Below are positions 1,504 to 24,300 of a stretch of 41,628 nt of DNA, in pieces. This stretch comes from a virus. Numbering within the stretch: the first letter of the stretch is position 1; each line of letters opens with the position of its first letter. The translations under genes and the position numbers were made by a program. The stretch is taken from IMG/VR virus record IMGVR_UViG_3300019468_000010. The stretch is one strand, 5' to 3'. The notes under the pieces were generated by a model that was not told the DNA's origin, did not search any database, and saw only the letters and a program-made list of their open reading frames with translations.

Positions 1504-2076
1504 TTCTCCCCTTTTGATAACTTTATACAAAAAATGAGATATATCGCCGTGGATATACCTCATTATGTGATAGTTTTATTCATTTTTATTGTATATTCAA
1601 AACCAAAGTTATATAGTTAGCTATTCGCCAACACGAGTATATGAATTGTAATCATGGTTAGCTCACTCTGTCTAACTCTCGCACAATACTCGGTTCCCAA
1701 CGGAACATATAGCTTTAGTTTTCAATATGCAATTGCACTCTCTAAACTAATACCGCCAGTTGTTTGTAGTATGTAACATTTTTTCGCTTAAGGTTTTATC
1801 TCATGAAACGTATAGTTGGTTGTTATTGCAATATTGGAAAGGATAATATGCGGTATTAGTTTACAAAATGCAATATAAGAGGTGCGGTGCAGTTAGAAAA
1901 TAATATAGATTGTAATGACTTAGAAACAATACTCGTTGATTTTCAAATACAAAATATAAAACCGCACCTCAATTGCTATTTAGTTTTTAGAATTGCTCAT
2001 TGGCAACTCTTACACCCTATATTCTACTATATGTTTTTAGGTGTTTATACTGACATTTACTGACATTTCATGACAT
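1504..2076. other. Long non-coding region (about 570 bp) with dense palindromes and repeats. It is a candidate late promoter, packaging site or ncRNA locus.
   Basis: No ORF longer than about 17 codons with an RBS on either strand. It contains 10-bp palindromes TGCAATTGCA (1728-1737) and TATTGCAATA (1824-1833), and a 10-bp inverted repeat GAGGTGCGGT/ACCGCACCTC (1879-1888 / 1961-1970). Confidence 0.6.
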
Positions 2077-2090
2077 TTACTGACATTTCA
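2051..2090. repeat. Four exact-period 10-bp tandem repeats TGACATTT(AC/CA)
   Basis: TGACATTT starts at 2051, 2061, 2071 and 2081. The array spans the stop codon of the regulator gene at 2077. Confidence 0.9.
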
Positions 2091-3118: not shown

Positions 3119-3335
3119 ATTCCCATTCTCCTTTATCTTCATTCCATTTGTACCACTTCACGTTTTTTACAAACATTCCGTTTTCTTGTAAATCACCTTG
3201 CATTTCACCGATACAAAATTCATCATCGCCACTTTCACAAGCTAATTGCTTTAGAAATTCAAACGCACTTTCCCATGTATCATGTGGTGCTATGTAATAA
3301 TCTGAATGTTCTGTATATCCGCTATAACCTAGCAT
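3111..3335 (-). CDS. Hypothetical acidic protein
   Basis: AAGAGGA RBS before the ATG at 3335. It overlaps the upstream stop. Confidence 0.55.
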   Translation of the reverse strand: MLGYSGYTEHSDYYIAPHDTWESAFEFLKQLACESGDDEFCIGEMQGDLQENGMFVKNVKWYKWNEDKGEWEYE

Positions 3336-3634
3336 TTGTTGTCCTCTTGCTCTTTTTTCCATTGCATATACGCATTGCTCCATTCTTTATCACGCTCATT
3401 TTCAACAAAATTCATATATTCAAATAATGCTCTTTTCCGTACTGACCTTGTATATTCTTCTAATGACATTCGTCCTTCTCTCAAATCGAACATACTTATC
3501 ATTACTGCAATGTTTGCACCACCTATACAATATTCAGCGAAAATACCATCTGGCCTTCTTCTTATAATAGGCTTATATATATCGTTCCCATGCACTATTG
3601 TTAATGCACTTGATAATAGTTCAAAGTCAATCAT
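3329..3634 (-). CDS. Hypothetical protein
   Basis: AAGAGGT RBS 6 nt before the ATG at 3634. Confidence 0.6.
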   Translation of the reverse strand: MIDFELLSSALTIVHGNDIYKPIIRRRPDGIFAEYCIGGANIAVMISMFDLREGRMSLEEYTRSVRKRALFEYMNFVENERDKEWSNAYMQWKKEQEDNKC

Positions 3635-3651
3635 AGTTACCTCTTATGATA

Positions 3652-3671
3652 AGGCGGATATTTCACCGCCT
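3652..3671 (-). terminator. GC-rich hairpin AGGCGG-N8-CCGCCT, 4 nt after the stop of the adhesin-linked gene. Possible weak terminator or RNA stabiliser.
   Basis: Inverted repeat read directly. There is no U-tract on the minus strand, so it is not a canonical intrinsic terminator. Confidence 0.3.
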
Positions 3672-3675
3672 ATAC

Positions 3676-3885
3676 CTATCCAACCAATACTTTAATCAAA
3701 ATCACAAACCCAAATATCAAAACTACTATCGATACACCCATGATCGCATTAAAAAATAACTCTTGTGCAAATTGGATTGCCTTTCTATTATTTTCTGCAT
3801 TCATATTAGCCATTACCTTGAAATCTTTTGTTTTTGTTTGTAGCTTATCTACATCACCTGTATATTTCCCTATTGGTGTACACAT
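3676..3885 (-). CDS. Small tail-anchored membrane protein immediately downstream of the adhesin gene
   Basis: C-terminal TM segment IMGVSIVVLIFGFVILIKVLV. Its ATG abuts the adhesin stop (TAAATG). Confidence 0.5.
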   Translation of the reverse strand: MCTPIGKYTGDVDKLQTKTKDFKVMANMNAENNRKAIQFAQELFFNAIMGVSIVVLIFGFVILIKVLVG

Positions 3886-5163
3886 TTATTTACCAGCTTT
3901 CAATTCTTTAACTTCCGCTACTAATTGATTTACCAACTCTTCAAGTTGTTTGATTTTACCTTTATGGTTAGTTTCGTATTCACTACCTTTACCAAGTCTA
4001 AAGGATACACCTGCGTTAATCATTTTGTTGGCCAATGTAGCACCCAAGCTAAACATTACATGCTCAGTTGGTGCATAGAACATACCGAGTGCCACATCAT
4101 TTGCGTTTTTGTAGTGGCCGTAGCCAACTGCAAATGTTAATTTATCATCAGAATTATAGCCTAAATAGTGTAGCGCACTTAGTGCAGCAGTAGATGCACC
4201 AGCTTTTGCTACTTCATGCATCACGTTTGAGATTTGACCTACTGTATTACGTTCTAAATCTGTAATACGTGTTTCGTGGTTATTAATTCTATCCGTATTA
4301 TTCAAAATGGCTTGGCTATTTTGCCCTACACGCTCGTTTGTAGCGGTTAAAGAGTTATTAATCGTTGTAAATCCGTTATCCACCTTAGAGGTCAAATTAG
4401 AGATATTCGTAGTATTTCGTGTAACTCGTTTGTCTAAACAGTTCACATCTTTTTGAAGTTTGGCAATGTGTGTTCCGTTTGTTTCAATTTCGTCATATGC
4501 TGCGAACAACTGACTGCCATTAACTGCATCTAAACTGCTAGGGTCTACACGGCCCGCACTTACATTGTGCAGTTGTCGGTTGTAGTTACTAATTCCACTG
4601 TATGTATCACTTTTCTTACTACCAAAGGATACTACGCTATTAGGACTTTCACCTGCGAACACATGAGTTACCCCATTTAATACAACTTGTCGAACACCTA
4701 CAGGGTTATCCGTTTGACTGTTTGTGCCAATCGCTACGGAATTTTGAACAGGTGCTGATGCATTATTGCCAATGACTACCGCATCAATACCACGCACTAC
4801 ACTATGTGTGCCTACTACCACTGCACCTTGATTGTCTACAGTATTGTTAGCACCTAATACAGTTTGTTCTTTATTGTTGCCTACATAATTGTTGTACCCA
4901 ATTACACTTGCTTGGTCAGCTTCAATTGTTCCATTGCCACCACCGATTACAACGCTATCATTTCCTGTTACTTTATTATCACGGCCAATTGCAATTGTAT
5001 TTGTGCCTGTAACTACTGTATTTGCCCCTACAGCTACAGAATTGTAACCGCTTACTACTGGTGCTTGTGTATTAGGCTCTACTGGCCCTGTTACAACACC
5101 GCTTGCTAATACATTACCGCCAATTGTACCCATAATCATTGTTGCTAATACTAATTTATTCAT
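3886..5163 (-). CDS. Trimeric autotransporter adhesin (YadA/Hag-like, type Vc) with a C-terminal coiled-coil extension
   Basis: Signal peptide MNKLVLATMIMGTIGGNVLASG. Head repeats (NSVAVGANTVVTG, NTIAIGRDNKVTG, NSVAIGTNSQT). Neck motif NRQLHNVSAGRVDPSSLDAVNGSQLFA. N/T-rich coiled stalk. YadA anchor AGASTAALSALHY...FAVGYGHYKNANDVALGMFY...GVSFRLG. Confidence 0.9.
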   Translation of the reverse strand: MNKLVLATMIMGTIGGNVLASGVVTGPVEPNTQAPVVSGYNSVAVGANTVVTGTNTIAIGRDNKVTGNDSVVIGGGNGTIEADQASVIGYNNYVGNNKEQTVLGANNTVDNQGAVVVGTHSVVRGIDAVVIGNNASAPVQNSVAIGTNSQTDNPVGVRQVVLNGVTHVFAGESPNSVVSFGSKKSDTYSGISNYNRQLHNVSAGRVDPSSLDAVNGSQLFAAYDEIETNGTHIAKLQKDVNCLDKRVTRNTTNISNLTSKVDNGFTTINNSLTATNERVGQNSQAILNNTDRINNHETRITDLERNTVGQISNVMHEVAKAGASTAALSALHYLGYNSDDKLTFAVGYGHYKNANDVALGMFYAPTEHVMFSLGATLANKMINAGVSFRLGKGSEYETNHKGKIKQLEELVNQLVAEVKELKAGK

Positions 5164-5181
5164 ATTTGTTTTCTCCTTTTA

Positions 5182-5219
5182 CTGTCTTTCTACTGTCTTT
5201 TTCTGTCTATCTACTGTCT
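5182..5219. promoter_or_regulatory. Four helically phased CTGTCT (TACTGTCTTT) direct repeats immediately upstream of the adhesin RBS
   Basis: CTGTCT starts at 5182, 5193, 5203 and 5214 (spacing 11, 10 and 11 bp). The repeats lie in the 64-bp gap between the dUTPase stop and the adhesin start. Confidence 0.6.
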
Positions 5220-5227
5220 TTTTTTGC

Positions 5228-5647
5228 CTATTTTCCTGTACTACCGAACCCATTACTACCTCTTTCTGTTTCATACAATCGGTCTGTTTCTTCAACATCA
5301 GGCAATAATATTGGAATAATTAACAATTGTGCTATACGTTCGCCACGCTTAATCGTGTAATTCTTGCATGATACATTGTCATATACCGCACATATCTCCC
5401 CTGTATAATCGCTATCAATTACCCCCATGCTATTTGCCATGCGTAGCGGTGTCTTATGCATGCTACTACGAGGAACCAATAGCCCAACATGAAAGTCAGG
5501 TATCTGTACCGCTATCCCTAGCGGTATTTTTTTCTGTGTATCTGCTGGTACTGTAATATCGAACGGACAATATAGATCTAAACCAGCACTCCATTTACTA
5601 CCTCGTGTAGGCAACTCAACATATTCATTTAACCTCTTTACTAACAT
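5228..5647 (-). CDS. dut: dUTP diphosphatase (trimeric dUTPase)
   Basis: Canonical motifs AGLDL, VPRSS, GVIDSDYTGE, GERIAQL and RGSNGFGSTG. Confidence 0.95.
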   Translation of the reverse strand: MLVKRLNEYVELPTRGSKWSAGLDLYCPFDITVPADTQKKIPLGIAVQIPDFHVGLLVPRSSMHKTPLRMANSMGVIDSDYTGEICAVYDNVSCKNYTIKRGERIAQLLIIPILLPDVEETDRLYETERGSNGFGSTGK

Positions 5648-5930
5648 TTATCCAATCACCCCATATTTTCGCTCTTGTTACTTGATTGCTTGTTAAGTTC
5701 AATTCTTTCATGATTTGTCTGTTATTAAAACCTTGTTTACACAATGCAATAACATCATCAATCAATTTGAATTCATCTTGTATAGTTCTTTTCTTAGGCA
5801 ATCCACTACCTTTTCCACCTATAACCTTAATTGCCTCATTTGTATCAAGGTTTCCCCATACTACCGATGCTAGTGCTAACCAGTTTTTGCAGTTATACGG
5901 AATTCCATAAACCGATGTATTAACTGCCAT
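5625..5930 (-). CDS. Putative HTH DNA-binding protein
   Basis: GGAGTGAGGA RBS before the ATG at 5930. The C-terminal segment CKQGFNNRQIMKELNLTSNQV looks like an HTH. Confidence 0.45.
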   Translation of the reverse strand: MAVNTSVYGIPYNCKNWLALASVVWGNLDTNEAIKVIGGKGSGLPKKRTIQDEFKLIDDVIALCKQGFNNRQIMKELNLTSNQVTRAKIWGDWINVSKEVK

Positions 5931-6294
5931 GTTCCTCACTCCATTCACTTTCTCTATAGATGCGGAAGAAATCATCAGCACTCATTACTACTAACCAAGG
6001 CTTATTGCTTTTTTTCCATGCTACTATTGGTATATCTCCATTATCTGCTTGAATTGCATCATGTTCAGCCTGTTCATATGCTTTACGCACATTTAGGCTT
6101 TCCACGAATTTCACTTCTTGATGTATGTTAGGTAATCCAATGCAATCCGCTGCATCACCTGTATTACCGCAATATTGTGCAGTTCTACGTACTTTATCAA
6201 AACCATGCAACCTACATACACCTCGCCACATTAATTCCCCTCTAACACCTTTTCGTTTACTATTTACTTTCTTTTTCTTCTTTTCTACTGGCAA
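5920..6294 (-). CDS. PD-(D/E)xK Holliday-junction-resolvase-like nuclease
   Basis: The pattern SKRKGVRGELMW...HGF...R...GDAADCIG...IHQEVKF fits the KG-x-x-E...D...E-x-K layout of Hjc/RecU-like resolvases. Confidence 0.55.
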   Translation of the reverse strand: MPVEKKKKKVNSKRKGVRGELMWRGVCRLHGFDKVRRTAQYCGNTGDAADCIGLPNIHQEVKFVESLNVRKAYEQAEHDAIQADNGDIPIVAWKKSNKPWLVVMSADDFFRIYRESEWSEEHGS

Positions 6295-6300
6295 TATATA

Positions 6301-7078
6301 TCACCTCTCTACGTATTGCTCACATCGTTTTAAAATATTCTGTACTAACATCAACGGAATATGCGACCTTGTGTTGTATCGATTAATACCAGTTGTGTTT
6401 AGCTTGTTAAATTTAATTGTGTTTTTTATATCGTCTTTTAACAACTTCAAATCGATATTGCTACCAAACTTTGTTGGTTTCTTGACTGGGTAATCATAGT
6501 TGTTGTAATAGGTTAGATTTTCATATGAAATATCGAACCCTATTACATTTGCTATGTATTCCCATATCCGCCCATATGCTGGGTTTTCAATCACGAATAC
6601 TTTGGGTTGATAACGCTCAATGATTTTCAACGTGTTATAGATACACATTTCACCATTGATACGTGTTAGAAATGACTTATCATATTTGAATTGGTAGTTT
6701 TCATAATCAATGTGATTTCTAATTGTGAATTTACTTCCTTGTTCGTACCCACCGAATAGGTTTATAGTCATATCCTTTTCTTGTTTCCAGCAAGCATTTC
6801 CACCTTTCATCGCACTTGCTACGCTCCAACTTTCGCATGGTGGACTAGCTAGAATAACATCGGGTCTATCTAGTCCATCTAGTGTTTCCCATAGTGCTTT
6901 GGGATTGTGTAATGTGTTAATCGCTAAATCTTGATTGATACACGCATCACCAATTCCTATTGATGTTATTGTGTGCTGCCCCCCCCGTATTCATGTTGTA
7001 TTCATCTAAACCTTGACGATAACACCCATTGCCATCATCAAATAATCCCCATATGTGCATCTCCCAACCTCTAATCAT
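6301..7078 (-). pseudogene. C5-cytosine DNA-methyltransferase-like gene split by a frameshift at a G8 tract. Either a phase-variable OFF state or a homopolymer miscall.
   Basis: The upstream fragment (7078-6947) carries a motif-I-like GLFDDGNG. The downstream frame carries DVILASPPCESWS (motif IV PC), FVIENP (motif VI) and RSHIPLMLVQNIL (motif X-like). Removing one G joins them into 258 aa with motif I to PC spacing like M.HhaI. Confidence 0.6.
6979..6986. repeat. C8 (G8 on the coding strand) homopolymer at the methyltransferase frameshift point
   Basis: Read directly as gtgtgctgCCCCCCCCgtat. It is the longest G/C run I saw in this AT-rich window. Confidence 0.9.
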
Positions 7079-7283
7079 TTACGCTGCATCCATATTTAGC
7101 TTTACGCATTTTATGTCTAATTTTCTTAGCGTTATTAACTATGTATGTATCGGTATCGTTACGCATCACACTACACTTCATTTCTTCTTCTTTGTGCTTC
7201 TTGTACATTCGATACATAGGGCATCTAACATGACACCCTACTTCTCGGAATGTACACCCCTTACATGGTGCATTCATAATCAA
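7071..7283 (-). CDS. Small Cys-rich (putative zinc-binding) protein
   Basis: CKGC...CHVRC cysteine/histidine cluster followed by a basic tail. Confidence 0.55.
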   Translation of the reverse strand: MIMNAPCKGCTFREVGCHVRCPMYRMYKKHKEEEMKCSVMRNDTDTYIVNNAKKIRHKMRKAKYGCSVND

Positions 7284-7288
7284 TACCC

Positions 7289-7702
7289 CTATTTGTCGAT
7301 GTAATCACTAATGCGGTATTTCTTTGTTTCAAAAACCACCCATGCATTATTTTCAAACCCATATTTCTTCTCCCATGCTCGAAATACTTTTGTTAGTTCT
7401 TCGCTTAGTTCGTCAATATGCTCTTTCTTCGCATCGTTCAAGTAATCGTCCGACAATTCTTTAATTTCATCATCCATGTCATATTCAATTAAATTCCAAA
7501 GTACTCGTTCACTATCAATCTCTGGAACATAACGATAAGGATGTCCAACACGTACCCATTCAATATCACGATTGCGAGCAACATCGCCAAAATAACTGAT
7601 GTATTCTAAATAATCCGCTATTGCATCTTTAATACTATCTTGCGGTTCGCCAGCTTTTCCGTTATCAACCCAGCAATATTTTGTTTTATCTTCAACTAAC
7701 AT
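7289..7702 (-). CDS. Hypothetical acidic protein
   Basis: 137-aa ORF in the operon, rich in D/E. No motif recognised. Confidence 0.6.
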   Translation of the reverse strand: MLVEDKTKYCWVDNGKAGEPQDSIKDAIADYLEYISYFGDVARNRDIEWVRVGHPYRYVPEIDSERVLWNLIEYDMDDEIKELSDDYLNDAKKEHIDELSEELTKVFRAWEKKYGFENNAWVVFETKKYRISDYIDK

Positions 7703-7704
7703 TT

Positions 7705-7881
7705 TTATTCCTCTAATTCTTCAACCTCTACTTCATTAATCCAATCATTCATATCACCATCATCTACATCTTCTGCAAGTTCAATTACATTAGCTTGTTG
7801 TACAGCGACTTCATAACTTTCACACTCTACAATTTTTGAAAACCCAATTTTTACATAGCCAGTAATTTTAAATTCTTTCAT
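7705..7881 (-). CDS. Small highly acidic protein (58 aa, below the ORF-track cutoff)
   Basis: Manual translation gives MKEFKITGYVKIGFSKIVECESYEVAVQQANVIELAEDVDDGDMNDWINEVEVEELEE. Strong AGAGGTG RBS, and the ORF fills the gap between SSB and the next gene. Confidence 0.55.
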   Translation of the reverse strand: MKEFKITGYVKIGFSKIVECESYEVAVQQANVIELAEDVDDGDMNDWINEVEVEELEE

Positions 7882-7892
7882 ATCATCACCTC

Positions 7893-8279
7893 TTAGAACG
7901 GAATATTTTCATTTTGCGGTTGCTCAAAACTGTCAAAGTTACTAGCAGTATCAAAACCGCCATCAAGCTTTCTCCCTACAAAGTCGGCTACCACTTCCGT
8001 AACGTATCGTTTCTGCCCATCTTGCGTATCGTAAGACCGAGTTTGAATACGGCCATTTACAAGCAACCTTTCTCCTTTCTTGCAGTTTCCAACGGCTTCG
8101 CCATTCTTGCCCCATGCTACGCAATTGATAAAAGCAGTTTGTTCTTTTGTTTCGTTGGTTGTAGAGTCAATATAAGTATTCGTAGCAGCTACTGTGAAAG
8201 TCGCTACGGCTCTACCTGTTTTTGTAAAACGTAATTCTGGATCACGTGCTAGATTGCCTAGAATTTGTACACTATTCAT
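7893..8279 (-). CDS. ssb: Single-stranded DNA-binding protein
   Basis: OB-fold N-terminus MNSVQILGNLARDPELRFT..G.AVATFTVA and an acidic C-terminal tip NENIPF. Confidence 0.9.
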   Translation of the reverse strand: MNSVQILGNLARDPELRFTKTGRAVATFTVAATNTYIDSTTNETKEQTAFINCVAWGKNGEAVGNCKKGERLLVNGRIQTRSYDTQDGQKRYVTEVVADFVGRKLDGGFDTASNFDSFEQPQNENIPF

Positions 8280-8458
8280 TAAATTAACTTCCTTTCAATA
8301 TTAATCTTGCCTTTGTATGTTCTTATCATGTCATGCATACACTCAAACTCTTTTGCGTTCGCTTTCATTAACATTGACATTTGCTCTGTTGCTTCCTGCT
8401 CAGTTTCCACATTGAGTGGTATTTCGATTAGGATTGTCATCTTGTGTTTTTTCTTCAT
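8279..8458 (-). CDS. Small hypothetical protein (59 aa, below the ORF-track cutoff)
   Basis: Manual translation gives MKKKHKMTILIEIPLNVETEQEATEQMSMLMKANAKEFECMHDMIRTYKGKINIERKLI. Its stop overlaps the ssb start (TAATG). The RBS is weak. Confidence 0.4.
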   Translation of the reverse strand: MKKKHKMTILIEIPLNVETEQEATEQMSMLMKANAKEFECMHDMIRTYKGKINIERKLI

Positions 8459-8679: not shown

Positions 8680-9360
8680 CTATCCACCTATTGCCTGTTT
8701 TAACAACGCTTTACCTTTATCAGATATTTTGCTTTTGTTGATTATTTCTGTTACATCTACTGGTTCTTTTGCCACTTCTACCAAGTTACCTGTACGTGTC
8801 ATTTCAATTTGCTTTTGACCTGCACTTATCAATGATTTTTCATGTTCCGCCTTTTCTCGTGCTTTCAATAATAGGTGATTATCCTTTATTGAATTTGCCA
8901 TACGTTGGCGGTGTTTCTCACGATCCATTAATTGCTCATAGCATTTAATAAACTGTGCCCTGCAACTTGCCTCATTATATTCATGGCCCATTCTAGGGTC
9001 GAACGATGACCATATCGGTTTTGCAGCTTGTAAGGTTATCCCCTCTAAATGCTCCTTTCCATTGTCATAACCATAAGTGCCTGCTACTTTGATTACTTTC
9101 TCCCATGCAGTTTGTGCAGTTTCCACTTCATCATGCATATTCACATATGCACTTAACGCTGTACATTCTTCACGTATCTCTGCAATCGTTGGCAAAAACT
9201 TACATTTATTAATCAAGTTAGCTACCGCTTGTTCCAGCGTTACAGGATTAATATTGCCAAGCATCGTTACGTACAATTTCATACGTTCAACTGACATATC
9301 AGTACTGTACGCTAGCTGTAACATCGATAGTGCTTTCACTATCTGTTGTTGATTGTTCAT
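8680..9360 (-). CDS. Putative helicase loader (G39P-like N-terminal domain)
   Basis: The segment ALSMLQLAYSTDMSVERMKLYVTMLGNINPVTLEQAVANLINKCKFLPTIAEIRE resembles the G39P loader family. It lies directly after the replisome organizer. The start is taken at the ATG at 9360, with an alternative GTG at 9378. Confidence 0.45.
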   Translation of the reverse strand: MNNQQQIVKALSMLQLAYSTDMSVERMKLYVTMLGNINPVTLEQAVANLINKCKFLPTIAEIREECTALSAYVNMHDEVETAQTAWEKVIKVAGTYGYDNGKEHLEGITLQAAKPIWSSFDPRMGHEYNEASCRAQFIKCYEQLMDREKHRQRMANSIKDNHLLLKAREKAEHEKSLISAGQKQIEMTRTGNLVEVAKEPVDVTEIINKSKISDKGKALLKQAIGG

Positions 9361-10120
9361 CTTCACCCCCATATTCACGCATCAATTTATTAACAACATC
9401 TATTGCGTTTTGCTTATTGCTCTTTGCAGGTTTGTTATAGTTATTCTTCTCCCAAGTTCTAACTGCTGCTTTCCAATCTTTCATAGCGTTCTTTCCTACT
9501 TTCCAGCCATTGCTTTCGTAGTAGTCATAGAATTGTTCAGCGTTTACATTATTATTGCGTTCAAGACAATACTGTGTAATTTGAGATAGAGTAGGTTTTT
9601 CAAAACGCTTGCGTTTTGTTGTAGTGCTTTTTGCACTACTATGTATCTCTTTCTCTATCTCTATATCTTTCTCTAACTCTATCTCTATCTCTGGTGGAGA
9701 TTTCTCGGAGATTTGTCGGAGATTTGTCCGGACATTTGTCCTATCTATTTCTATTCGTTGTCTATATTCACGCTTTCTGTCGGCTTCGCTACTTCCTTTA
9801 CCTATGAAATTTTGAATGTCTAGCATATAAATTGCACCATTATCCAACACATCAATAAGTCCTAAATCTTTAAAAACAGATAACGCTTGTTTGATTGTGC
9901 CTACTTGATGTCCTGTTACGCTCGCTAACATATCCGCACTATACGGAATACGTTCGTTTACTACTAACTTTCCGTCATTCTTTAGGCTTCGTAAGTAGAG
10001 TTTTAAAAGAATATTACTGTACAAGTAGCCATCTTTCATGCTTTCTAATATCTTCAACTCATCACTGTCAAAGAAATTATCTTTCAGCCGTAGATAGTAA
10101 TACTTTTTGTTGTCGCTCAT
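9299..10120 (-). CDS. Phage replisome organizer (Phage_rep_org_N plus a DnaD-like C-terminal domain)
   Basis: N-terminus KKYYYLRLKDNFFDSDELKILESMKDGYLYSNILLKLYL. C-terminus LSQITQYCLERNNNVNAEQFYDYYESNGWKVGKNAMKDWKAAVRTWEKN. Confidence 0.8.
   Translation of the reverse strand: MSDNKKYYYLRLKDNFFDSDELKILESMKDGYLYSNILLKLYLRSLKNDGKLVVNERIPYSADMLASVTGHQVGTIKQALSVFKDLGLIDVLDNGAIYMLDIQNFIGKGSSEADRKREYRQRIEIDRTNVRTNLRQISEKSPPEIEIELEKDIEIEKEIHSSAKSTTTKRKRFEKPTLSQITQYCLERNNNVNAEQFYDYYESNGWKVGKNAMKDWKAAVRTWEKNNYNKPAKSNKQNAIDVVNKLMREYGGEDEQSTTDSESTIDVTASVQY
9696..9741. repeat. Four tandem 11-12-bp iterons (GGAGATTTCTC, GGAGATTTGTC, GGAGATTTGTCC, GGACATTTGTCC) inside the replisome organizer gene. Candidate ori.
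   Basis: Read directly. They are preceded by a CTCTATCTCT-type repeat tract at about 9640-9692. Confidence 0.6.
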
Positions 10121-14748: not shown

Positions 14749-15804
14749 ATGCAATTCAATACAACAATTCGGAGAAAGGATAAAGGCTATCAAATTATAG
14801 TTAGCTATAAGGACGGCTATAAGTGGAAACAGAAATCTAAACAGGGTTTCGCAACACAAAGAGATGCTAAACTTTATGGCCAAGAAATAGTAGACAATCT
14901 AAAAAAGACTATCACCAGTCCACTTGATGATAGTCTAAAAGATATAACGCTTATTGAGTTTTACAAGATATATACAGATGAAAACAAAGCAAATGTATAT
15001 TCTACGTTCAAAGCATATGACAATGCATTTCAGAAATTCAACATGCTATTCAATATGAAAGTAAAAGATATTTCTGAAATACAAATTCGGAAAGTAATTA
15101 ATGACTTACAACAATCAATAGCCAGTAAGAATATGTGCATAACGATTATAACAAAGGTATTCGCCTATGCAGTATCACCATATAGGATTATTAATAGTAG
15201 TCCATGTAAGAACATTAAACGACTACATAAAACACAAACAACTAAAATCAACGCTATAAATGAAGATGATGTAACACGCCTGTTAACATCGTTAAAAGGC
15301 CATAACTACAAATACTATATCGTGTGTTCCATTGCTGCTTATACTGGTATGCGGTATGGCGAAATATTAGGCCTTACATGGGATGATATAGATTTAGATA
15401 ACGCTATTATTGATGTGAATAAACAATTCGCTTATAGCGGTGAAAGTACATATATGATCCGCAATCTAAAGACAAAAAACAGTTACAGAAAAATACCTAT
15501 ACCGCCAATACTGATTGATATATTGCTTGAATACAAAAATACCACCAGCGGATTATATCTATTCAACAATCCAACTGGCGGTACTGGTGCAGTATCGGTA
15601 ATGATAAAACGATATTTACCAAATACTTCTATACATGATTTAAGACATACCTATGCTACAAGGTTATTAGCAAATGGTGTTGATATAAAAACAGTAGCAT
15701 CCTTATTAGGTGATACTGTTGATACAGTCATCAACACATACATTCACTATACCGATGAAATGAGATTAAAGGCACATGATAGTGTGTCTAAAATTTTCGG
15801 CTAG
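14749..15804 (+). CDS. int: Tyrosine integrase
   Basis: TGMRYGEILGLTWDDID (catalytic Arg box) and HDLRHTYATRLLANGVDIKTVASLLGD...TYIHY (H-x-x-R ... Y). Confidence 0.95.
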   Translation: MQFNTTIRRKDKGYQIIVSYKDGYKWKQKSKQGFATQRDAKLYGQEIVDNLKKTITSPLDDSLKDITLIEFYKIYTDENKANVYSTFKAYDNAFQKFNMLFNMKVKDISEIQIRKVINDLQQSIASKNMCITIITKVFAYAVSPYRIINSSPCKNIKRLHKTQTTKINAINEDDVTRLLTSLKGHNYKYYIVCSIAAYTGMRYGEILGLTWDDIDLDNAIIDVNKQFAYSGESTYMIRNLKTKNSYRKIPIPPILIDILLEYKNTTSGLYLFNNPTGGTGAVSVMIKRYLPNTSIHDLRHTYATRLLANGVDIKTVASLLGDTVDTVINTYIHYTDEMRLKAHDSVSKIFG

Positions 15805-16023
15805 AATTTTTGACGAATTTATTGACGATTACCAAATAAACCTTGTAATTACTGGTGTTTTCAACCTATAAAACATATCAATATATTATACTCCAATTAA
15901 CTATGGATTATCAATTATTTCACAATTATTATTATACTTGCAATTAATCTTTGTTGCGGTAAATATTACTTCTCATATTTTACCACATTTTACAATTAGA
16001 ATTTGACGAATATTTGACGAAAT
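15805..16023. other. attP-like region with two pairs of TTGACGA(A/T)(T/A) direct repeats (arm-type site candidates)
   Basis: TTGACGAAT at 15810-15818, TTGACGATT at 15822-15830, TTGACGAAT at 16003-16011 and TTGACGAAA at 16014-16022. All are in the same orientation and flank about 170 bp of AT-rich DNA next to int. Confidence 0.55.
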
Positions 16024-21308: not shown

Positions 21309-24300
21309 TTAATGTTTATCTTTTTTAGATTTTTTATCTTTCAATCGTCTATCAAACATGATAGCCATAATGACATCTTCTAGTTTTGCATCCGTGTCCG
21401 TTAGTGCAAATTTAGCTAATGTCCATAGTCCATCTGTTACAGTATCACTGAACCCTGTAATTCGGTTAGATACTTGTGATAGGCTTCTACCTACATCCAT
21501 AGCGCCTTTATTAGGCGATACAATTGCATTGCCTACATCATATAGTTTTTCAACGATTGATGCGGCCATTACTGTATTCCCTTTATTGAATACCTTTTCG
21601 CCTAGAATGTATTTCATAGCCATGTTGGAAATATCACGCACAATAGGTATACCCATAGTAGCTTGTGATACCAATTCTTCCCCAAAGGATTTTGCTAAAT
21701 CTTCAGGGCTATCATCATCTCCATTTGTCATAGCCTTGTAAACCATCATGCCTAGCGCTTGTGCGGTCAAAGTCCACCATAGCATGCGCACGAATTGTCC
21801 ATAGTTGCCTTGGTCTTTCCGTGCATAGTTACCCTCAGCAATGATATTGTACAAAGTGTTAGCGTATGAGTAGAATGGTACAAATAGTTGAGTGAGTGCA
21901 TTTCTTGAACGTTGGATGCCTGCACTGTCTTTTGTATCGCCGCTACCGAATATATCTCTTACGGCTCTATCGCCAGCACTAATAGCTTCCTGTTCTACAA
22001 ATTCTGCCGTTACTCCCTCAACACTTTGTAATTCAAGTACTTTCTTATCGTATGCAAATTTCCATATAGGAATAGACAAGGCAAAATCAGTTTCTGTTAA
22101 AAGCCTAAATCCCATTTGGTTAATATCATCACGAATATTAGCCAATTGTTCAGCCTTATAACCACCAATATTTGTATCACCTATGCGTAAGCCTTTACCC
22201 TCAATGGATAACCCTTGTTTCAAGTCCTTATCTAGTGTTTGAACACGTTCCCTCATGAATATGGATTGAGATAACACGAAATCACGTGTTGCGTTGTACT
22301 TGGTTGTACCTACACCATAAAACCCTATACCAGCATCGCTAATTGCTTTGAGCGTATTTCCTACACCGATACGATACATGGCAACAGGAATGTTCAATGC
22401 ATTTTGTAATGCTACGGATACACGGCCAGCCATAACTGCGGTAGAGGTATTTTTCTTGAGTGTCATAACCAATCTACCCCATGCATCAAGTTTTGCAGCT
22501 TCATCTTTCCAGTTATCACGAACCCATGTGCGCAAGAATTGGTAGGTTTCCATACCAAATTTATCAACGATATATTCTTGGAAACGGCTATTGCCTACTA
22601 GCTTATTTACATCCGTTACTGCTTTACGCATGGTAACGTGATTAATAGCCTCTGTAATCGCATTAGGGATAACATCAAAATCAAGCATTAAGGATTTACC
22701 TTTGACTACATCCAAACGTGATTTAGTAGCACCCATACCAGTACCAAAGATTGCATTACTAGCAATCATCGTTTTAGCAATATCCTCTGTTTCAAAGTCA
22801 GATACTTTAGCACTTACTTTAGGATTGTACACAATAGGGAAATATTGGCCTTGAATTTCTCTACCACCAATTGTGAATGTAATACCTTTTTCTTTCTTCA
22901 AAGGATTACCATACAATTCCTCTTGTACCTTGCTACGTTCTTCATAGAATGAATTGATATGTTCCCATGTACGAATAACAAATTCCCAATCCTTATCCGT
23001 CATGTACTCTTGGAACGCTCTCTCCATTTCTACTTCATTACTTTGGATAGTTTCCAATGCACGTTGTCTATTTTTTTCTGTACCCCAATTCAAGGCAAGC
23101 ATGATGATTTGCTCTTTGGTAACGTTGCGTAATTCGCCTACGTTATAGAGATGATCATTGCGAACATCAAAGAGTTGTTTCTTTGAATATACCGCTTTTA
23201 CATCTCTGGCCAATCTATACATAGATTTTTCTTTGTACTCGTTAAATTTCTGAGTAGCTTTATTAATTGGCTCGTAAATATATCTAACTGCAGGGCCATT
23301 CTTTCCACCATCCAACCTGCGCAAGAATGTTTCAGCTTTCAATAATGATAAGTTAAAGTTATTCAATGTGTTAGACAATGCATCTGCACGGCTGCGGTTG
23401 TTTAACTCGTTAAATACATTTCCATTATCTCTACCAAATGTTTCAGCTGCCTTATCAATAATTTGGAATATAGCTTCATCAAATGTAACGTTATTCCCTT
23501 TTTCATCAATTAGCGTACTTCCCTCATATTGAGTTCTACCGCTTTTGTACATACCTGTCATGAGTTCCTCTAACTGTTCGAGTTCGCTCATTTTAAGGGT
23601 ACTAAACGTTCTAGGTGATTTAGCATCGAACATTTCGTATATCCATGGTTCAAGTTGTACAGTCGCTTCTTTATCACCCATGATGTCAGCATCTGCATCG
23701 AGTGCTTTAATCACGGCCATCATGTCAAAACCATTAACAGGTTGTAAGCCATCGTACTTAGTCAATCCCATTTGATATGCCATATGTGTATAGAAATAAC
23801 GCATATTAGGTTCAATCATAATAGGGTTTTGACTACGTGTCATGCGGTTCAATTGGTCTAACAATTTAACACGCAATTTCTTAATGGCCTTTGAATTTTC
23901 AAACGCTACTCTCGCCCTTGCTTGGTTTAGCATTTGAGATTGCTTAGCACGTAATGCTTCATCTACTTTACCAGTAGCCAATGCACTATCTGCTTTCTTA
24001 CCATCTCGTACTGCTTGATTTTGGTATTTCTTGTACTGGCTAGCTTGAGATAATGTCAAATCGCCTAACTCTCTTTTAGCACGTTCCATGTATTTCGGAA
24101 TAGTACCAAATCCACCATCACGGATTGTGCGAACCGCATTAATACGCTCTTGCAACGTATCCATTAACTTTTCAATTCGCTCTTCCTTAGATAATACTTT
24201 ATGGTCCATGCGTTCTTGCATACGCTCTTGCAAGCGTTCTTTTTGCTCTAGCACTTTATCAAGTCTATTCGTGATTGCTGTTAAGCGTTTAGATAATTCG

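Follow-up and report, generated by a model that had tools for sequence, protein, structure and literature searches.

Organization of the Locus

The locus lies on the minus strand of a stretch of viral DNA of 41,628 nucleotides, hereafter called the window. It contains a gene for a trimeric autotransporter adhesin (TAA), a small membrane-protein gene, a tandem repeat array, and a hairpin. In the order of their coordinates, the features are as follows.

3645..3678 (−): hairpin GAUAUAGGCGG-UGAAAUAU-CCGCCUUAUC, downstream edge of the cassette, with GGCGG-N8-CCGCC at 3653–3670
3676..3885 (−): 69-residue tail-anchored membrane protein (ORF), with a hydrophobic C-terminal segment from residue ~50
3886..5163 (−): TAA gene, 425 residues (Pfam, AlphaFold2, Foldseek)
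3889..3999 (−): periplasmic C-terminal extension of the TAA, residues 389–425, in which a GKGSEYE linker leads into a coiled-coil helix
4000..4158 (−): YadA membrane anchor, residues 336–388 (Pfam YadA_anchor and AlphaFold2)
4177..4518 (−): coiled-coil stalk, residues 216–329, one helix of 114 residues (AlphaFold2)
4507..4584 (−): neck or stalk-entry motif, residues 194–219, NRQLHNVSAGRVDPSSLDAVNGSQL (Pfam YadA_stalk, 197–239)
4654..5061 (−): YadA-type left-handed β-roll head, residues ~35–170 (Pfam YadA_head, AlphaFold2)
5101..5163 (−): putative Sec signal peptide, residues 1–21, MNKLVLATMIMGTIGGNVLAS (by eye from the translation)
5173..5179 (−): Shine–Dalgarno sequence AAAGGAG, 9 nt 5' of the TAA ATG (read from the sequence)
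5176..5222 (−): purine-rich tandem array that bounds the cassette upstream (Tandem Repeats Finder, period 11, 4.5 copies)
5228..5647 (−): dUTPase gene (Pfam dUTPase, E 2.6e-30), upstream neighbor of the cargo slot

The YadA-type adhesin at 3886–5163 (−), the 69-residue ORF, the repeat array, and the GC hairpin are all found where a preliminary description of this DNA had placed them.

Domain Anatomy of the Adhesin

The ORF at 3886–5163 (−) encodes a complete TAA, in which a putative signal peptide, a YadA-type β-roll head, a DAVNGSQL neck, a helical stalk of ~114 residues, a four-stranded anchor, and a periplasmic coil follow one another. The N-terminus, as judged by eye, is composed of a positively charged MNK start, a hydrophobic core, and an A-S/G site, with no extended signal peptide region, and AlphaFold2 places a low-confidence helix at residues 4–16. 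The head is recognized by Pfam YadA_head (PF05658) in three stretches (E 6e-12) and is modeled with a pLDDT of 90–97, the mean over the whole monomer model being 78. Its top structural matches are the heads of UspA1, AtaA, BoaA, and BpaA. The SLDAVNGSQLF neck motif is seen in the translation, and the Pfam match to YadA_stalk/neck (PF05662) at residues 197–239 is borderline, its 28.3 bits falling just short of the 28.4 cut-off. In an alignment of 24 homologues, N215 of the neck is invariant, while R196, N200, A203, G204, R205, S210, D212, A213, G216, S217, Q218, and L219 constitute near-invariant columns.

The anchor at residues 336–388 scores above the gathering threshold of Pfam YadA_anchor (PF03895, E 2.4e-7). 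It consists of four strands in the AlphaFold2 model (342–351, 354–363, 369–376, and 382–388) and resembles the anchors of Hia, YadA, and AtaA in Foldseek. The top Foldseek matches in the PDB are all heads or anchors of TAAs (UspA1, AtaA, BPSL2063, EibD, BoaA, CbpF, Hia, and YadA), and the phmmer matches are likewise TAAs alone. The NCBIfam search of the adhesin reached no equivalog and assigned no named adhesin. Among the long matches, the top scores belong to multi-repeat TAAs from Klebsiella and Pseudomonas and are inflated by the repeated heads.

All the parts named in the preliminary description are present, but the anchor was there taken as the last of them and the tail of 37 residues that follows (389–425) was missed. 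Residues 401–424 of this tail form a helix in the AlphaFold2 model and display a heptad pattern. The tail aligns with the post-anchor tail of Fusobacterium nucleatum CbpF (9gh4), and it is kept in both TAA alleles of the related phages discussed below, as well as in P0242, P0291, and P0302. The TAAs of Negativicutes bear a periplasmic domain, the "short" type of which has fewer than 100 residues and is mainly coiled coil, as is the 37-residue tail (PMC7549365; 10.64898/2026.01.22.700529). In Veillonella parvula, the periplasmic domain guards the TAAs against degradation. The post-anchor coiled-coil tail is a hallmark of Negativicutes TAAs.

The Phage and Its Host

The window represents the complete genome, 41.5 kb in size, of a temperate phage, the circular assembly following from a 127-bp overlap shared by its termini. 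It encodes an integrase, terminase, portal, capsid, and tail proteins along with a cI-like repressor, which bears out the earlier statement that the TAA is phage-borne. The same genome is integrated beside bacterial genes in the contigs L006, L007, and L009, and a free form is found in L008. V. tobetsuensis ATCC BAA-2400 harbors a syntenic prophage with a TAA that is 96% identical. This prophage identifies Veillonella, a diderm Firmicute, as the host and agrees with the diderm Firmicute host assumed in the preliminary description. Among species-representative genomes, a close copy of the TAA is present in only two, namely the V. tobetsuensis prophage and a 5.3-kb phage fragment.

A megablast search of the INPHARED phage collection with 25 kb of the window gave no match, and tblastn with the TAA gave only four weak partial matches, in Salmonella and Acinetobacter records. 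As judged by sequence, no described phage is close to the Veillonella phage of the window. The dUTPase gene is the last one of a replication and nucleotide-metabolism block. The GC content here, 39.3%, is slightly above that of the whole genome, 37.1%.

The Cargo Slot in Related Phages

Sixty distinct variants of the slot occupied by the cassette were compared among related phages. Allele 1 of the TAA is found in 42 of them and allele 2, which is 58–60% identical to allele 1, in 4, while the remaining 14 have no TAA, with presence and absence at the same site among close relatives. Exact deletion scars, in which the repeat array is fused to the hairpin, are seen in L015, L024, and L050, and in L011 the TAA is reduced to a remnant ORF of 16 codons. 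Since about a quarter of the slot variants are without the TAA, phage growth does not require the cassette. It is accessory cargo with edges exactly at the repeat array and the hairpin, the two elements that the preliminary description had given as the bounds of the unit. Every slot variant holds small membrane proteins.

The dUTPase upstream is a mosaic module with 62–99% amino acid identity in related phages, the adjoining TAA being 90–99% identical. Allele-1 TAAs are 96–98% identical even where the flanking dUTPase (62–72%) and the regulator orf152 (59–61%) diverge. The cassette is swapped between phage lineages as a module.

The 43 distinct allele-1 sequences give pS 0.30, pN 0.018, and dN/dS 0.048. 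By region, dN/dS is 0.037 for residues 22–190, covering the head, and 0.022 for residues 336–390, the anchor. These ratios indicate that the gene, where present, is under strong purifying selection. Natural length variants of 404, 410, 411, and 418 residues are found. The 404-, 411-, and 418-residue variants, which are the three displayed, have 21, 14, and 7 stalk residues missing, i.e., whole heptads. The low dN/dS, together with the loss of whole heptads in the displayed length variants, indicates that the TAA gene is functional. A conserved, non-diversifying head is unusual for an exposed antigen and may reflect a function other than host adhesion, e.g., one directed at a conserved bacterial structure.

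More than 120 protein clusters near-identical to the TAA came up in the homology search, and a single one of them holds 732 member sequences. Beyond this family, the closest clusters are at most 54% identical; four were inspected, three of which lie on phage-like contigs. The unrelated phage-like contigs L090, L091, and L092 also have short, periplasmic-tailed TAAs among their early genes.

Repeat Array, Ribosome-Binding Site, and Hairpin

The array fills the 64-nt gap from the dUTPase stop codon to the ribosome-binding site of the TAA. A motif search finds four AGACAG(T/A)A units in it, at 5180–5219 and 10–11 bp apart. The relatives have 1, 3, 4, or 5 copies, and in one pair that is identical across 560 nt of the TAA gene the copy number is 5 vs 3. 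No structure is predicted for the leader RNA with the array (MFE 0), and the AAAGGAG Shine–Dalgarno sequence is kept in all allele-1 and allele-2 cassettes. A second, 10-bp array at 2048–2090 has units similar to those of the leader array. A regulator-binding motif common to the two arrays is no more than a lead, the degenerate motif not being enriched in the genome (28 observed vs 24 expected).

At the other edge, GGCGG-N8-CCGCC has a single occurrence in the window. The hairpin overlaps the stop codon of the small ORF, and the ribosome-binding site of the next gene follows. Its RNA fold has an energy of −14.7 kcal/mol, which is not significant relative to shuffled sequences (z −1.45). It is present in 57 of the 60 slot variants, where the closing pair covaries from A-U to G-C with only G..U intermediates. 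An Rfam scan of the entire window found no RNA family, such that neither the hairpin nor the 513-bp non-coding stretch corresponds to a known one. We do not call the hairpin an intrinsic terminator, because it is without a U tract.

The 69-Residue Protein

The start codon of the 69-residue ORF directly abuts the stop codon of the TAA gene (TAA-ATG). The ORF is a real gene, as judged from a dN/dS of 0.25 over 20 distinct variants. The protein has no match in Pfam, PHROG, NCBIfam, or PADLOC. It has 625 homologues, none of which has a Pfam domain, and the best 120 are 78–99% identical to it.

A role of this protein as a helper of the TAA, of the TpgA or SadB type, was also considered. Neither a constant linkage to the TAA nor homology of the BamE/OmpA-like or SadB lipoprotein kind was found. 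The ORF is present without the TAA in L014 and absent beside it in L041, and unrelated small membrane proteins stand in for it in L073, L081, and L087. Because the two are separable in natural variants, the protein is no obligate helper. The idea that it is needed for display of the TAA is contradicted by the occurrence of TAAs without the small ORF or with an unrelated one, and of the small ORF alone.

Comparison with Known Systems

The domain order of the phage TAA is that of the Veillonella and other Negativicutes TAAs, such as VtaA–I of V. parvula SKV38 (PMC7549365; 10.64898/2026.01.22.700529). The two also have in common the host genus and a periplasmic extension, which in the phage protein is of the "short coiled-coil" type. 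VtaB, encoded by the smallest of the chromosomal TAA genes (1.41 kb), is close in size to the phage TAA, whereas the genes of VtaA and most of VtaC–I (1.7–9.6 kb) are much longer. The likeness is one of architecture. The Vta genes are chromosomal, in a cluster beside rRNA genes and at other loci, while the TAA here is encoded by a phage. Phages are mentioned in neither of the two papers.

The preliminary description had compared the gene to the Eib proteins, short TAAs of ~400–500 residues on temperate phages that have the head–neck–stalk–anchor layout in common with the phage TAA. EibA, C, D, E, F, and G are immunoglobulin-binding TAAs of E. coli. Sandt and Hill, in 2000/2001, reportedly found the Eib genes on E. 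coli prophages. EibD (2xqh) is a structural match of the phage TAA in Foldseek (E 1.2e-5, 21% identity) and is absent from its phmmer matches at E ≤ 0.01. The Eib proteins are, moreover, without a periplasmic tail, and their host phylum is different. The comparison is therefore apt for the architecture and the prophage location but does not extend to family membership, since at the sequence level the phage TAA does not group with the Eib family.

The best-scoring solved relative by sequence is CbpF of F. nucleatum (PDB 9gh4, 9gh5; E 5e-14), with a match that spans the anchor and continues into the post-anchor coiled-coil tail. CbpF is also a short TAA, and it comes from a diderm outside Proteobacteria, periplasmic tails of TAAs being common in such diderms. 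The identity to the phage TAA is, however, only ~21–22% over the structural alignment. CbpF binds CEACAM1, and its likeness to the phage TAA is one of sequence and fold. The cbpF gene is presumably chromosomal.

Proteins annotated as YadA-anchor or "agglutinating adhesin" are found in the Proteobacteria phages Yersinia phiR1-RT, TG1, and fHe-Yen9-04, Salmonella SKML-39, and Escherichia Phieco32, and also in gut-virome Myoviridae MAGs. They have YadA-type head and/or membrane-anchor domains like the phage TAA, but they are 15–24% identical to it and many are fragments or fiber-like. We know of no functional characterization of these proteins. They show that phages have repeatedly come to carry TAA-like genes.

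Expression of adhesins can be tuned by repeats, as in the case of the uspA2 AGAT repeats, the nadA TAAA tract, and the hmw 7-bp repeats. The phage TAA shares with these a copy-variable short tandem repeat directly upstream of the adhesin gene. The units are 9–11 bp long here compared to 4–7 bp there, a differing copy number is seen in only one near-identical pair, and the phage array also persists after loss of the TAA.

Phage-borne TAAs as such are already known, from the Eib prophages and the YadA-anchor proteins of Proteobacteria phages, and what is new here is the host clade. In the literature searched, no TAA encoded by a phage is reported for Veillonella or any other member of Negativicutes, in line with the novelty that had been proposed for phages of diderm Firmicutes.

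Expression and Proposed Role

We consider it likely, with a probability of roughly 0.6, that the cassette in this temperate Veillonella phage is accessory cargo encoding a complete, functional TAA of the Negativicutes type. As it carries a complete and strongly conserved adhesin gene that is dispensable, the phage probably alters the adhesive behavior of its host cell.

On the basis of the domain anatomy and the established knowledge of the TAA class, the following mechanism can be proposed. Transcription of the TAA would most likely occur by read-through from the early/middle operon of the lytic strand, and translation would be driven by the unstructured purine-rich repeat leader and the strong Shine–Dalgarno sequence. 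The 425-residue precursor would be exported by Sec through its N-terminal signal peptide, after which BAM would insert the three C-terminal anchor segments, with four strands each, as a 12-stranded outer-membrane barrel. The passenger would then thread out to give a short "lollipop", composed of a β-roll head of ~135 residues, the neck, and a coiled-coil stalk of ~17 nm. The 37-residue coiled coil behind the barrel would remain periplasmic and protect the protein from degradation, as in the V. parvula TAAs. At the surface, the TAA would act as an adhesin, such that the carrying or infected cell would gain a new binding or aggregation specificity.

Two alternatives that deny the TAA such a role are highly improbable. 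The gene could be a neutral hitch-hiker without a phage role, i.e., a host adhesin fragment acquired by aberrant excision, or simply an assembly chimera, which the preliminary description had named as a possible refutation. The TAA is indeed of the host's own Negativicutes type and has been lost repeatedly. However, more than 50 independent contigs of viral origin, from many samples, have it at the same position and in the same synteny, which excludes the chimera. Its dN/dS is 0.05 at pS 0.30, the gene lies mid-genome and not at the att-proximal end, and both close copies in species-representative genomes are phage DNA. The shared synteny and the purifying selection effectively refute both the chimera and the neutral passenger. 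It is equally hard to see the TAA as a component of the virion, namely a YadA-like tail fiber or spike for adsorption. Many phage fibers do have YadA-like head and stalk modules, as illustrated by PHROG 17426 ("adhesin") and the BFVD matches, but the TAA begins with a putative signal peptide, and both its outer-membrane anchor, which is complete, and its periplasmic tail set it apart. The gene is also not part of the structural module, where separate tail and tailspike genes are found, and complete related phages are without it. The tail-fiber reading was rejected.

The time at which the TAA would be made is a different matter. The gene has the orientation of the early/middle operon of the lytic strand and lies within it, with RusA-like, dUTPase, and phrog_36 regulator genes as neighbors, and because of this location its expression in lysogens is conjectural. 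A crude consensus scan of the coding strand from 5164 to ~6040, which an atypical or phage-factor-dependent promoter in or near the repeat array could escape, found no σ70-type promoter, and no intrinsic terminator was called after the cassette in the same scan. The preliminary description had proposed a lysogenic-conversion gene. In the classical form of this proposal, the TAA would have a promoter of its own, active in the repressed prophage, and would confer an adhesion, aggregation, or immune-evasion trait, as for Eib. The presence or absence of the gene at the same site is as expected for such a cassette; a promoter and terminator of its own were not found in the crude scan, which is a weak negative. 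The temperate nature of the phage, with its integrase and cI-like repressor, is consistent with the proposal, as are the module exchange and strong purifying selection of an accessory gene, the slightly higher GC content, and the repeat array, which as part of the cassette could hold an unrecognized regulatory site. On the other hand, the cassette has just 64 nt of upstream DNA of its own, made up of purine-rich repeats and the ribosome-binding site, and the gene is ~8 kb into the lytic-strand operon. Cargo expressed in lysogeny usually lies by the att site or in the immunity region, both of which are distant. We therefore regard lysogenic conversion as possible but doubtful. An early or middle lytic function can be suggested only tentatively as well. 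Here the TAA would mask the phage receptor, providing superinfection exclusion or keeping progeny from adsorbing to debris, or it would tie the infected cell to susceptible neighbors, such that lysis would take place where hosts are dense. The operon location with no own promoter found, the leader that looks strongly translatable, and the conserved, non-diversifying head all argue for such a function. The small membrane proteins always present in the slot belong to a class that includes known exclusion proteins. Further, of the unrelated phage-like contigs with early-gene TAAs, L091 has no integrase or repressor in the inspected stretch, and YadA-anchor proteins occur in Proteobacteria phages, among them T4-like Yersinia phages, which are virulent. 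Against this, no homology to known exclusion or defense proteins was found (PADLOC gave nothing meaningful), export, BAM insertion, and trimerization need time within the lytic cycle, and about a quarter of the related slot variants do without the TAA.

A more specific and rather unlikely variant is that the TAA is part of an "envelope-remodelling" slot of Veillonella phages that is used early after infection or induction and not for lysogenic conversion. The outer-membrane adhesin and the interchangeable tail-anchored inner-membrane proteins would, on this speculative account, share the slot; the repeat leader would conceivably set the translation level and the conserved RNA hairpin would frame the slot. 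If this were true, the phage would block its own receptor, or glue the infected cell to susceptible neighbors in dental plaque. Progeny would then be released into a dense patch of hosts, and the lytic cycle would involve a phage-directed biofilm architecture.

Implications

Returning to the preferred reading of the cassette as cargo encoding a functional TAA, the phage family is common in public metagenomes, and most of its members carry the TAA under strong purifying selection. Veillonella is an early "bridging" colonizer of dental plaque and is abundant in the gut and airway flora. Adhesion and co-aggregation in the only genetically studied Veillonella strains are driven by chromosomal TAAs. 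The phage TAA is missed by chromosomal surveys and is labeled "hypothetical protein" in public records. With it, type Vc adhesins encoded by phages are no longer confined to Proteobacteria but reach diderm Firmicutes, and the protein has the periplasmic tail characteristic of that lineage. The prophage-bearing V. tobetsuensis ATCC BAA-2400, together with the genetics of V. parvula SKV38, offers a tractable test case. If the TAA is displayed, adhesion in Veillonella would depend in part on phage carriage, a determinant that is mobile and differs between strains.

Phage genome, host and gene order

The window is a complete temperate Veillonella phage. Its ends (1–127 and 41502–41628) are identical over 127 bp; the assembly is therefore circular, with a true genome length of 41,501 bp. 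Besides the integrase, PHROG and Pfam matches identify a cI-like HTH protein, the small and large terminase subunits, the portal, the major capsid protein, tail proteins, a tailspike and a lysozyme-like lysis protein. The identical sequence is found both as an integrated copy (contigs L006, L007, and L009) and in a free circular arrangement (L008). In the integrated copies, the prophage/host junction (attP) lies at ~15,890, just past the integrase stop codon, and the bacterial flanks include a lactate permease, a lactate/malate dehydrogenase family protein, and a molybdopterin oxidoreductase. These copies adjoin a GIY-YIG gene, no tRNA gene being noticed at the site, and a 12-bp tandem repeat, GAATTTATTGAC, is located near attP at 15804–15828.

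Scanning bacterial genomes, one for each species, returned two close copies of the gene for a trimeric autotransporter adhesin (TAA) that the phage carries. One, 96% identical, belongs to a syntenic prophage in a 427-kb contig of Veillonella tobetsuensis ATCC BAA-2400, which bears out the diderm-Firmicute host proposed in the preliminary description. The other, 93% identical, is on L005 (CALEMV010000347.1), a 5.3-kb fragment of the same Veillonella phage family that is most likely mis-binned in its MAG of "uncultured Solobacterium sp.", a monoderm Firmicute.

The minus-strand order begins with attP, the integrase and the repressor, these genes being on the opposite strand, and continues with Cro-like, excisionase-like, DUF1351, replication organiser, SSB, RusA-like and dUTPase genes. 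The TAA gene, a small ORF, four small unknown ORFs and a phrog_36 transcriptional regulator (2077–2535) follow, and then a non-coding stretch of 513 bp, the terminase, the virion genes, and the lysis genes. From this order, the TAA gene, on the lytic strand, ends the early/middle block, and the immunity region is ~8 kb away.

Main features of the phage discussed here

14749–15804, plus strand: integrase (PHROG and Pfam matches)
5228–5647, minus strand: dUTPase gene (Pfam, E = 2.6e-30), whose stop codon opens, in transcription order, the minus-strand region 3645–5227
5176–5222, minus strand: array of four AGACAG(T/A)A units at 10–11 bp spacing (Tandem Repeats Finder, period 11; motif matches)
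between array and TAA ORF, minus strand: strong ribosome-binding site AAAGGAG (read from the sequence)
3886–5163, minus strand: TAA ORF, 425 codons
3676–3885, minus strand: small ORF, 69 codons, its ATG immediately after the TAA stop codon
3653–3670, minus strand: GC hairpin GGCGG-N8-CCGCC, occurring once within the window
1564–2076: 513-bp non-coding stretch, bounded by the regulator gene and by the small ORFs ahead of the terminase

Two further features of the genome may be mentioned here. A 2,820-aa ORF with a MuF_C domain (21309–29771, minus strand), unusually large for a 41.5-kb phage at ~20% of the genome, has the tail genes on one side and the tailspike on the other. Adjacent arrays of TATCTC (eight copies) and an 11-bp unit (four copies) at 9644–9740, inside the replication-organiser gene (9299–10120, Phage_rep_org_N), are probably origin iterons.

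The adhesin protein

The phage protein is a complete TAA of the Negativicutes type, with all parts encoded. Pfam finds three YadA_head stretches (E = 6e-12), a neck/stalk motif at 28.3 bits, marginally below the 28.4 cut-off, and a YadA anchor at residues 336–388 (E = 2.4e-7). The AlphaFold2 model, built with 24 homologues as input (mean pLDDT 78), has a signal helix at the N-terminus, a beta-roll head at ~35–170 (pLDDT 90–97), one helix at 216–329, four strands within 342–388, and a last helix at 401–424. In the Foldseek comparison with the PDB, significant scores were obtained for TAA heads and anchors only (UspA1, AtaA, BPSL2063, EibD, BoaA, CbpF, BpaA, Hia, and YadA), while the phage TAA approached none of the NCBIfam models of named adhesins (YadA, EmaA, Ata, BimA, and Vomp).

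All elements listed in the preliminary description are found at the coordinates it gave, but a tail had been overlooked: 37 residues, GKGSEYETNHKGKIKQLEELVNQLVAEVKELKAGK, follow the anchor, which is therefore not C-terminal. The closest solved relative by sequence, CbpF of Fusobacterium nucleatum (9gh4, E = 5e-14), aligns over both the anchor and the tail behind it. Such a periplasmic domain is present in 99.8% of Negativicutes TAAs, the "short" type being a coiled coil of <100 aa, and a V. parvula TAA devoid of it is degraded (Dorison et al. 2026, 10.64898/2026.01.22.700529). On account of this tail, the phage TAA is of the host's own lineage-specific type.

The adhesin gene among related phages

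The TAA gene is phage-borne and accessory. The TAA search returned at least 120 protein clusters at 97–100% identity, one with 732 members, and many cluster members sit on 40–45 kb contigs. We retrieved 79 IMG/VR loci via the conserved regulator gene, and the interval from dUTPase to hairpin (the slot) collapsed to 60 distinct variants. The TAA type of the window (allele 1) occupies 42 of these at 90–99% amino acid identity, and a divergent allele 2, 58–60% identical, is present in four; the two differ in the head surface and stalk but share the same periplasmic tail. The remaining 14 of the 60 contain no TAA, several being exact deletion derivatives. In L015, L024, and L050 the array is joined straight to the hairpin, whereas in L014 the end of the TAA gene (~20 nt) and, behind it, the small ORF come after the array. 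L011 retains a 16-codon remnant, the signal-peptide start fused to the final five codons of allele 2. Remnant mini-ORFs ending in LKASK, the last residues of allele 2, were noted at ~4124–4230 of L011 and downstream of the dUTPase in L064, L076, and L082, so the adhesin gene has been repeatedly deleted internally. The gene is dispensable for the phage. Given these exact deletions, the cassette is truly bounded by the array and the hairpin, as the preliminary description had it.

Among 43 distinct allele-1 sequences, pS is 0.30 and pN 0.018 (dN/dS 0.048), with regional dN/dS values of 0.037 for the head (residues 22–190) and 0.022 for the anchor (336–390). The protein also occurs at lengths of 404, 410, 411, and 418 aa; of these, the 404-, 411-, and 418-aa forms displayed lack 21, 14, and 7 residues, in each case whole heptads of the stalk. 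The substitution pattern clearly argues for a functional gene under purifying selection. Allele 1 is still 96–98% identical where the neighbouring dUTPase (62–72%) or late regulator (59–61%) has diverged, and the TAA therefore travels between phage lineages as a module.

Small membrane proteins of the slot

The small ORF, which encodes a tail-anchored membrane protein, is a real gene, as shown by 625 homologues, of which the best 120 are 78–99% identical, and by a dN/dS of 0.25. Pfam, PHROGs, NCBIfam, and PADLOC place it in no family. The small ORF and the TAA are not obligatorily paired: in L041 the TAA is followed directly by the hairpin, in L087, L073, and L081 unrelated small proteins replace the small ORF, and L014 has the small ORF without the TAA. 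Two small ORFs are present in each of L018, L025, L029, L040, and L071. A survey of 1,383 genomes found no new helper proteins adjoining TAAs (Dorison et al., 10.64898/2026.01.22.700529). With or without a TAA, the slot content is nearly constant in type (window 3645–3885; L011–L089), namely one or two proteins of 36–79 aa, each with a transmembrane segment at the C-terminus; at least four unrelated families are represented. These could be exclusion or envelope-modifying proteins.

Repeat leader, hairpin and non-coding stretch

The array fills nearly the whole 64-nt spacer between the dUTPase stop codon and the TAA ribosome-binding site, and is found only in allele-1 cassettes and their deletion derivatives, whereas the leader of allele 2 is different and AT-rich. 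The copy number is 1, 3, 4, or 5 in the 50 loci scored, and two loci whose TAA genes do not differ in the first 560 nt have five and three units. No structure is predicted for the leader RNA (MFE 0), in keeping with an open, efficiently translated initiation region.

The hairpin belongs to a ~40-nt element, GATAT(A/G)GGCGGTGAAATATCCGCC(T/C)TATCATAAGAGGTG, present in 57 of the 60 slot variants and much better conserved than the mosaic coding sequences flanking both sides. Its closing pair covaries between A-U and G-C with G..U as the sole intermediates, consistent with a stem formed by the sense RNA. The folding energy is unexceptional (z = -1.45), and a terminator scan did not call the hairpin, which is without a U tract. 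We see in it a conserved element, either at the RNA level or at a recombination boundary.

Where the 513-bp non-coding stretch begins, a second 10-bp array, AAATGTCAGT (four copies, 2048–2090, minus strand), spans the stop codon of the phrog_36 regulator gene. The similarity of its unit to the one in the TAA leader, AAATAGACAGT, hints at a common DNA- or RNA-binding factor. The stretch itself holds a 10-bp inverted repeat, GAGGTGCGGT (1970–1961) and ACCGCACCTC (1888–1879), ~70 nt apart, has no match in Rfam, and is a candidate late promoter or packaging region.

Timing of expression and significance

We put the probability that the gene encodes a functional phage-borne surface TAA at about 0.9. 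By the established biology of the class, the protein would be exported through Sec, inserted by BAM as a 12-strand trimeric barrel, and stabilised by the periplasmic coil, displaying a short head-on-stalk passenger that would alter what the cell sticks to.

As to when this would happen, we are roughly evenly divided between expression in the lysogen and expression in the lytic phase, where the TAA could serve receptor masking, exclusion, or aggregation with neighbouring hosts. A sigma-70-type consensus scan of the array and the 3′ part of the dUTPase gene found no sigma-70-like promoter, and we lean weakly, the scan being a consensus match only, toward transcription of the TAA gene together with the early/middle lytic genes and not on its own in the lysogen. 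Lytic-phase expression is also kept plausible by the head, which is conserved and not diversifying, and by the short TAAs with a like tail among the early genes of at least three unrelated phage-like contigs. On L090, a TAA of 443 aa (3327–4658) adjoins the immunity region; L091 has two in tandem (519 and 429 aa, 3799–6666), with no integrase or repressor in the stretch inspected; and on L092, one of 449 aa (7001–8350) is close to RusA, dUTPase, and ThyX. A post-anchor coiled coil is present in the three whose sequences were read (443, 519, and 449 aa). In addition, BFVD contains YadA-anchor proteins in Proteobacteria phages, including T4-like Yersinia phages, which are virulent. TAAs in early phage regions look like a recurrent theme.

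Phage-borne TAAs as a kind are already known. The classic example is that of the Eib proteins in E. coli prophages, a family to which the present TAA does not belong. Viral structure databases hold many YadA-like entries, and in a survey of the mouse gut virome, temperate viral OTUs were noted to be enriched for TAA genes (PMC10578192). For Veillonella, or any other Negativicute, a phage-borne TAA appears unreported within the literature searched: the two key papers on Veillonella TAAs (Bechon et al., PMC7549365; Dorison et al., 10.64898/2026.01.22.700529) do not mention phages, our search on Veillonella prophage adhesins gave nothing relevant, and the public record DAT64459.1 labels the protein "hypothetical protein". 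Additional features of the present case are its periplasmic tail specific to the lineage, a well-defined slot for cargo, a repeat leader that varies, and a high prevalence in metagenomes associated with humans.
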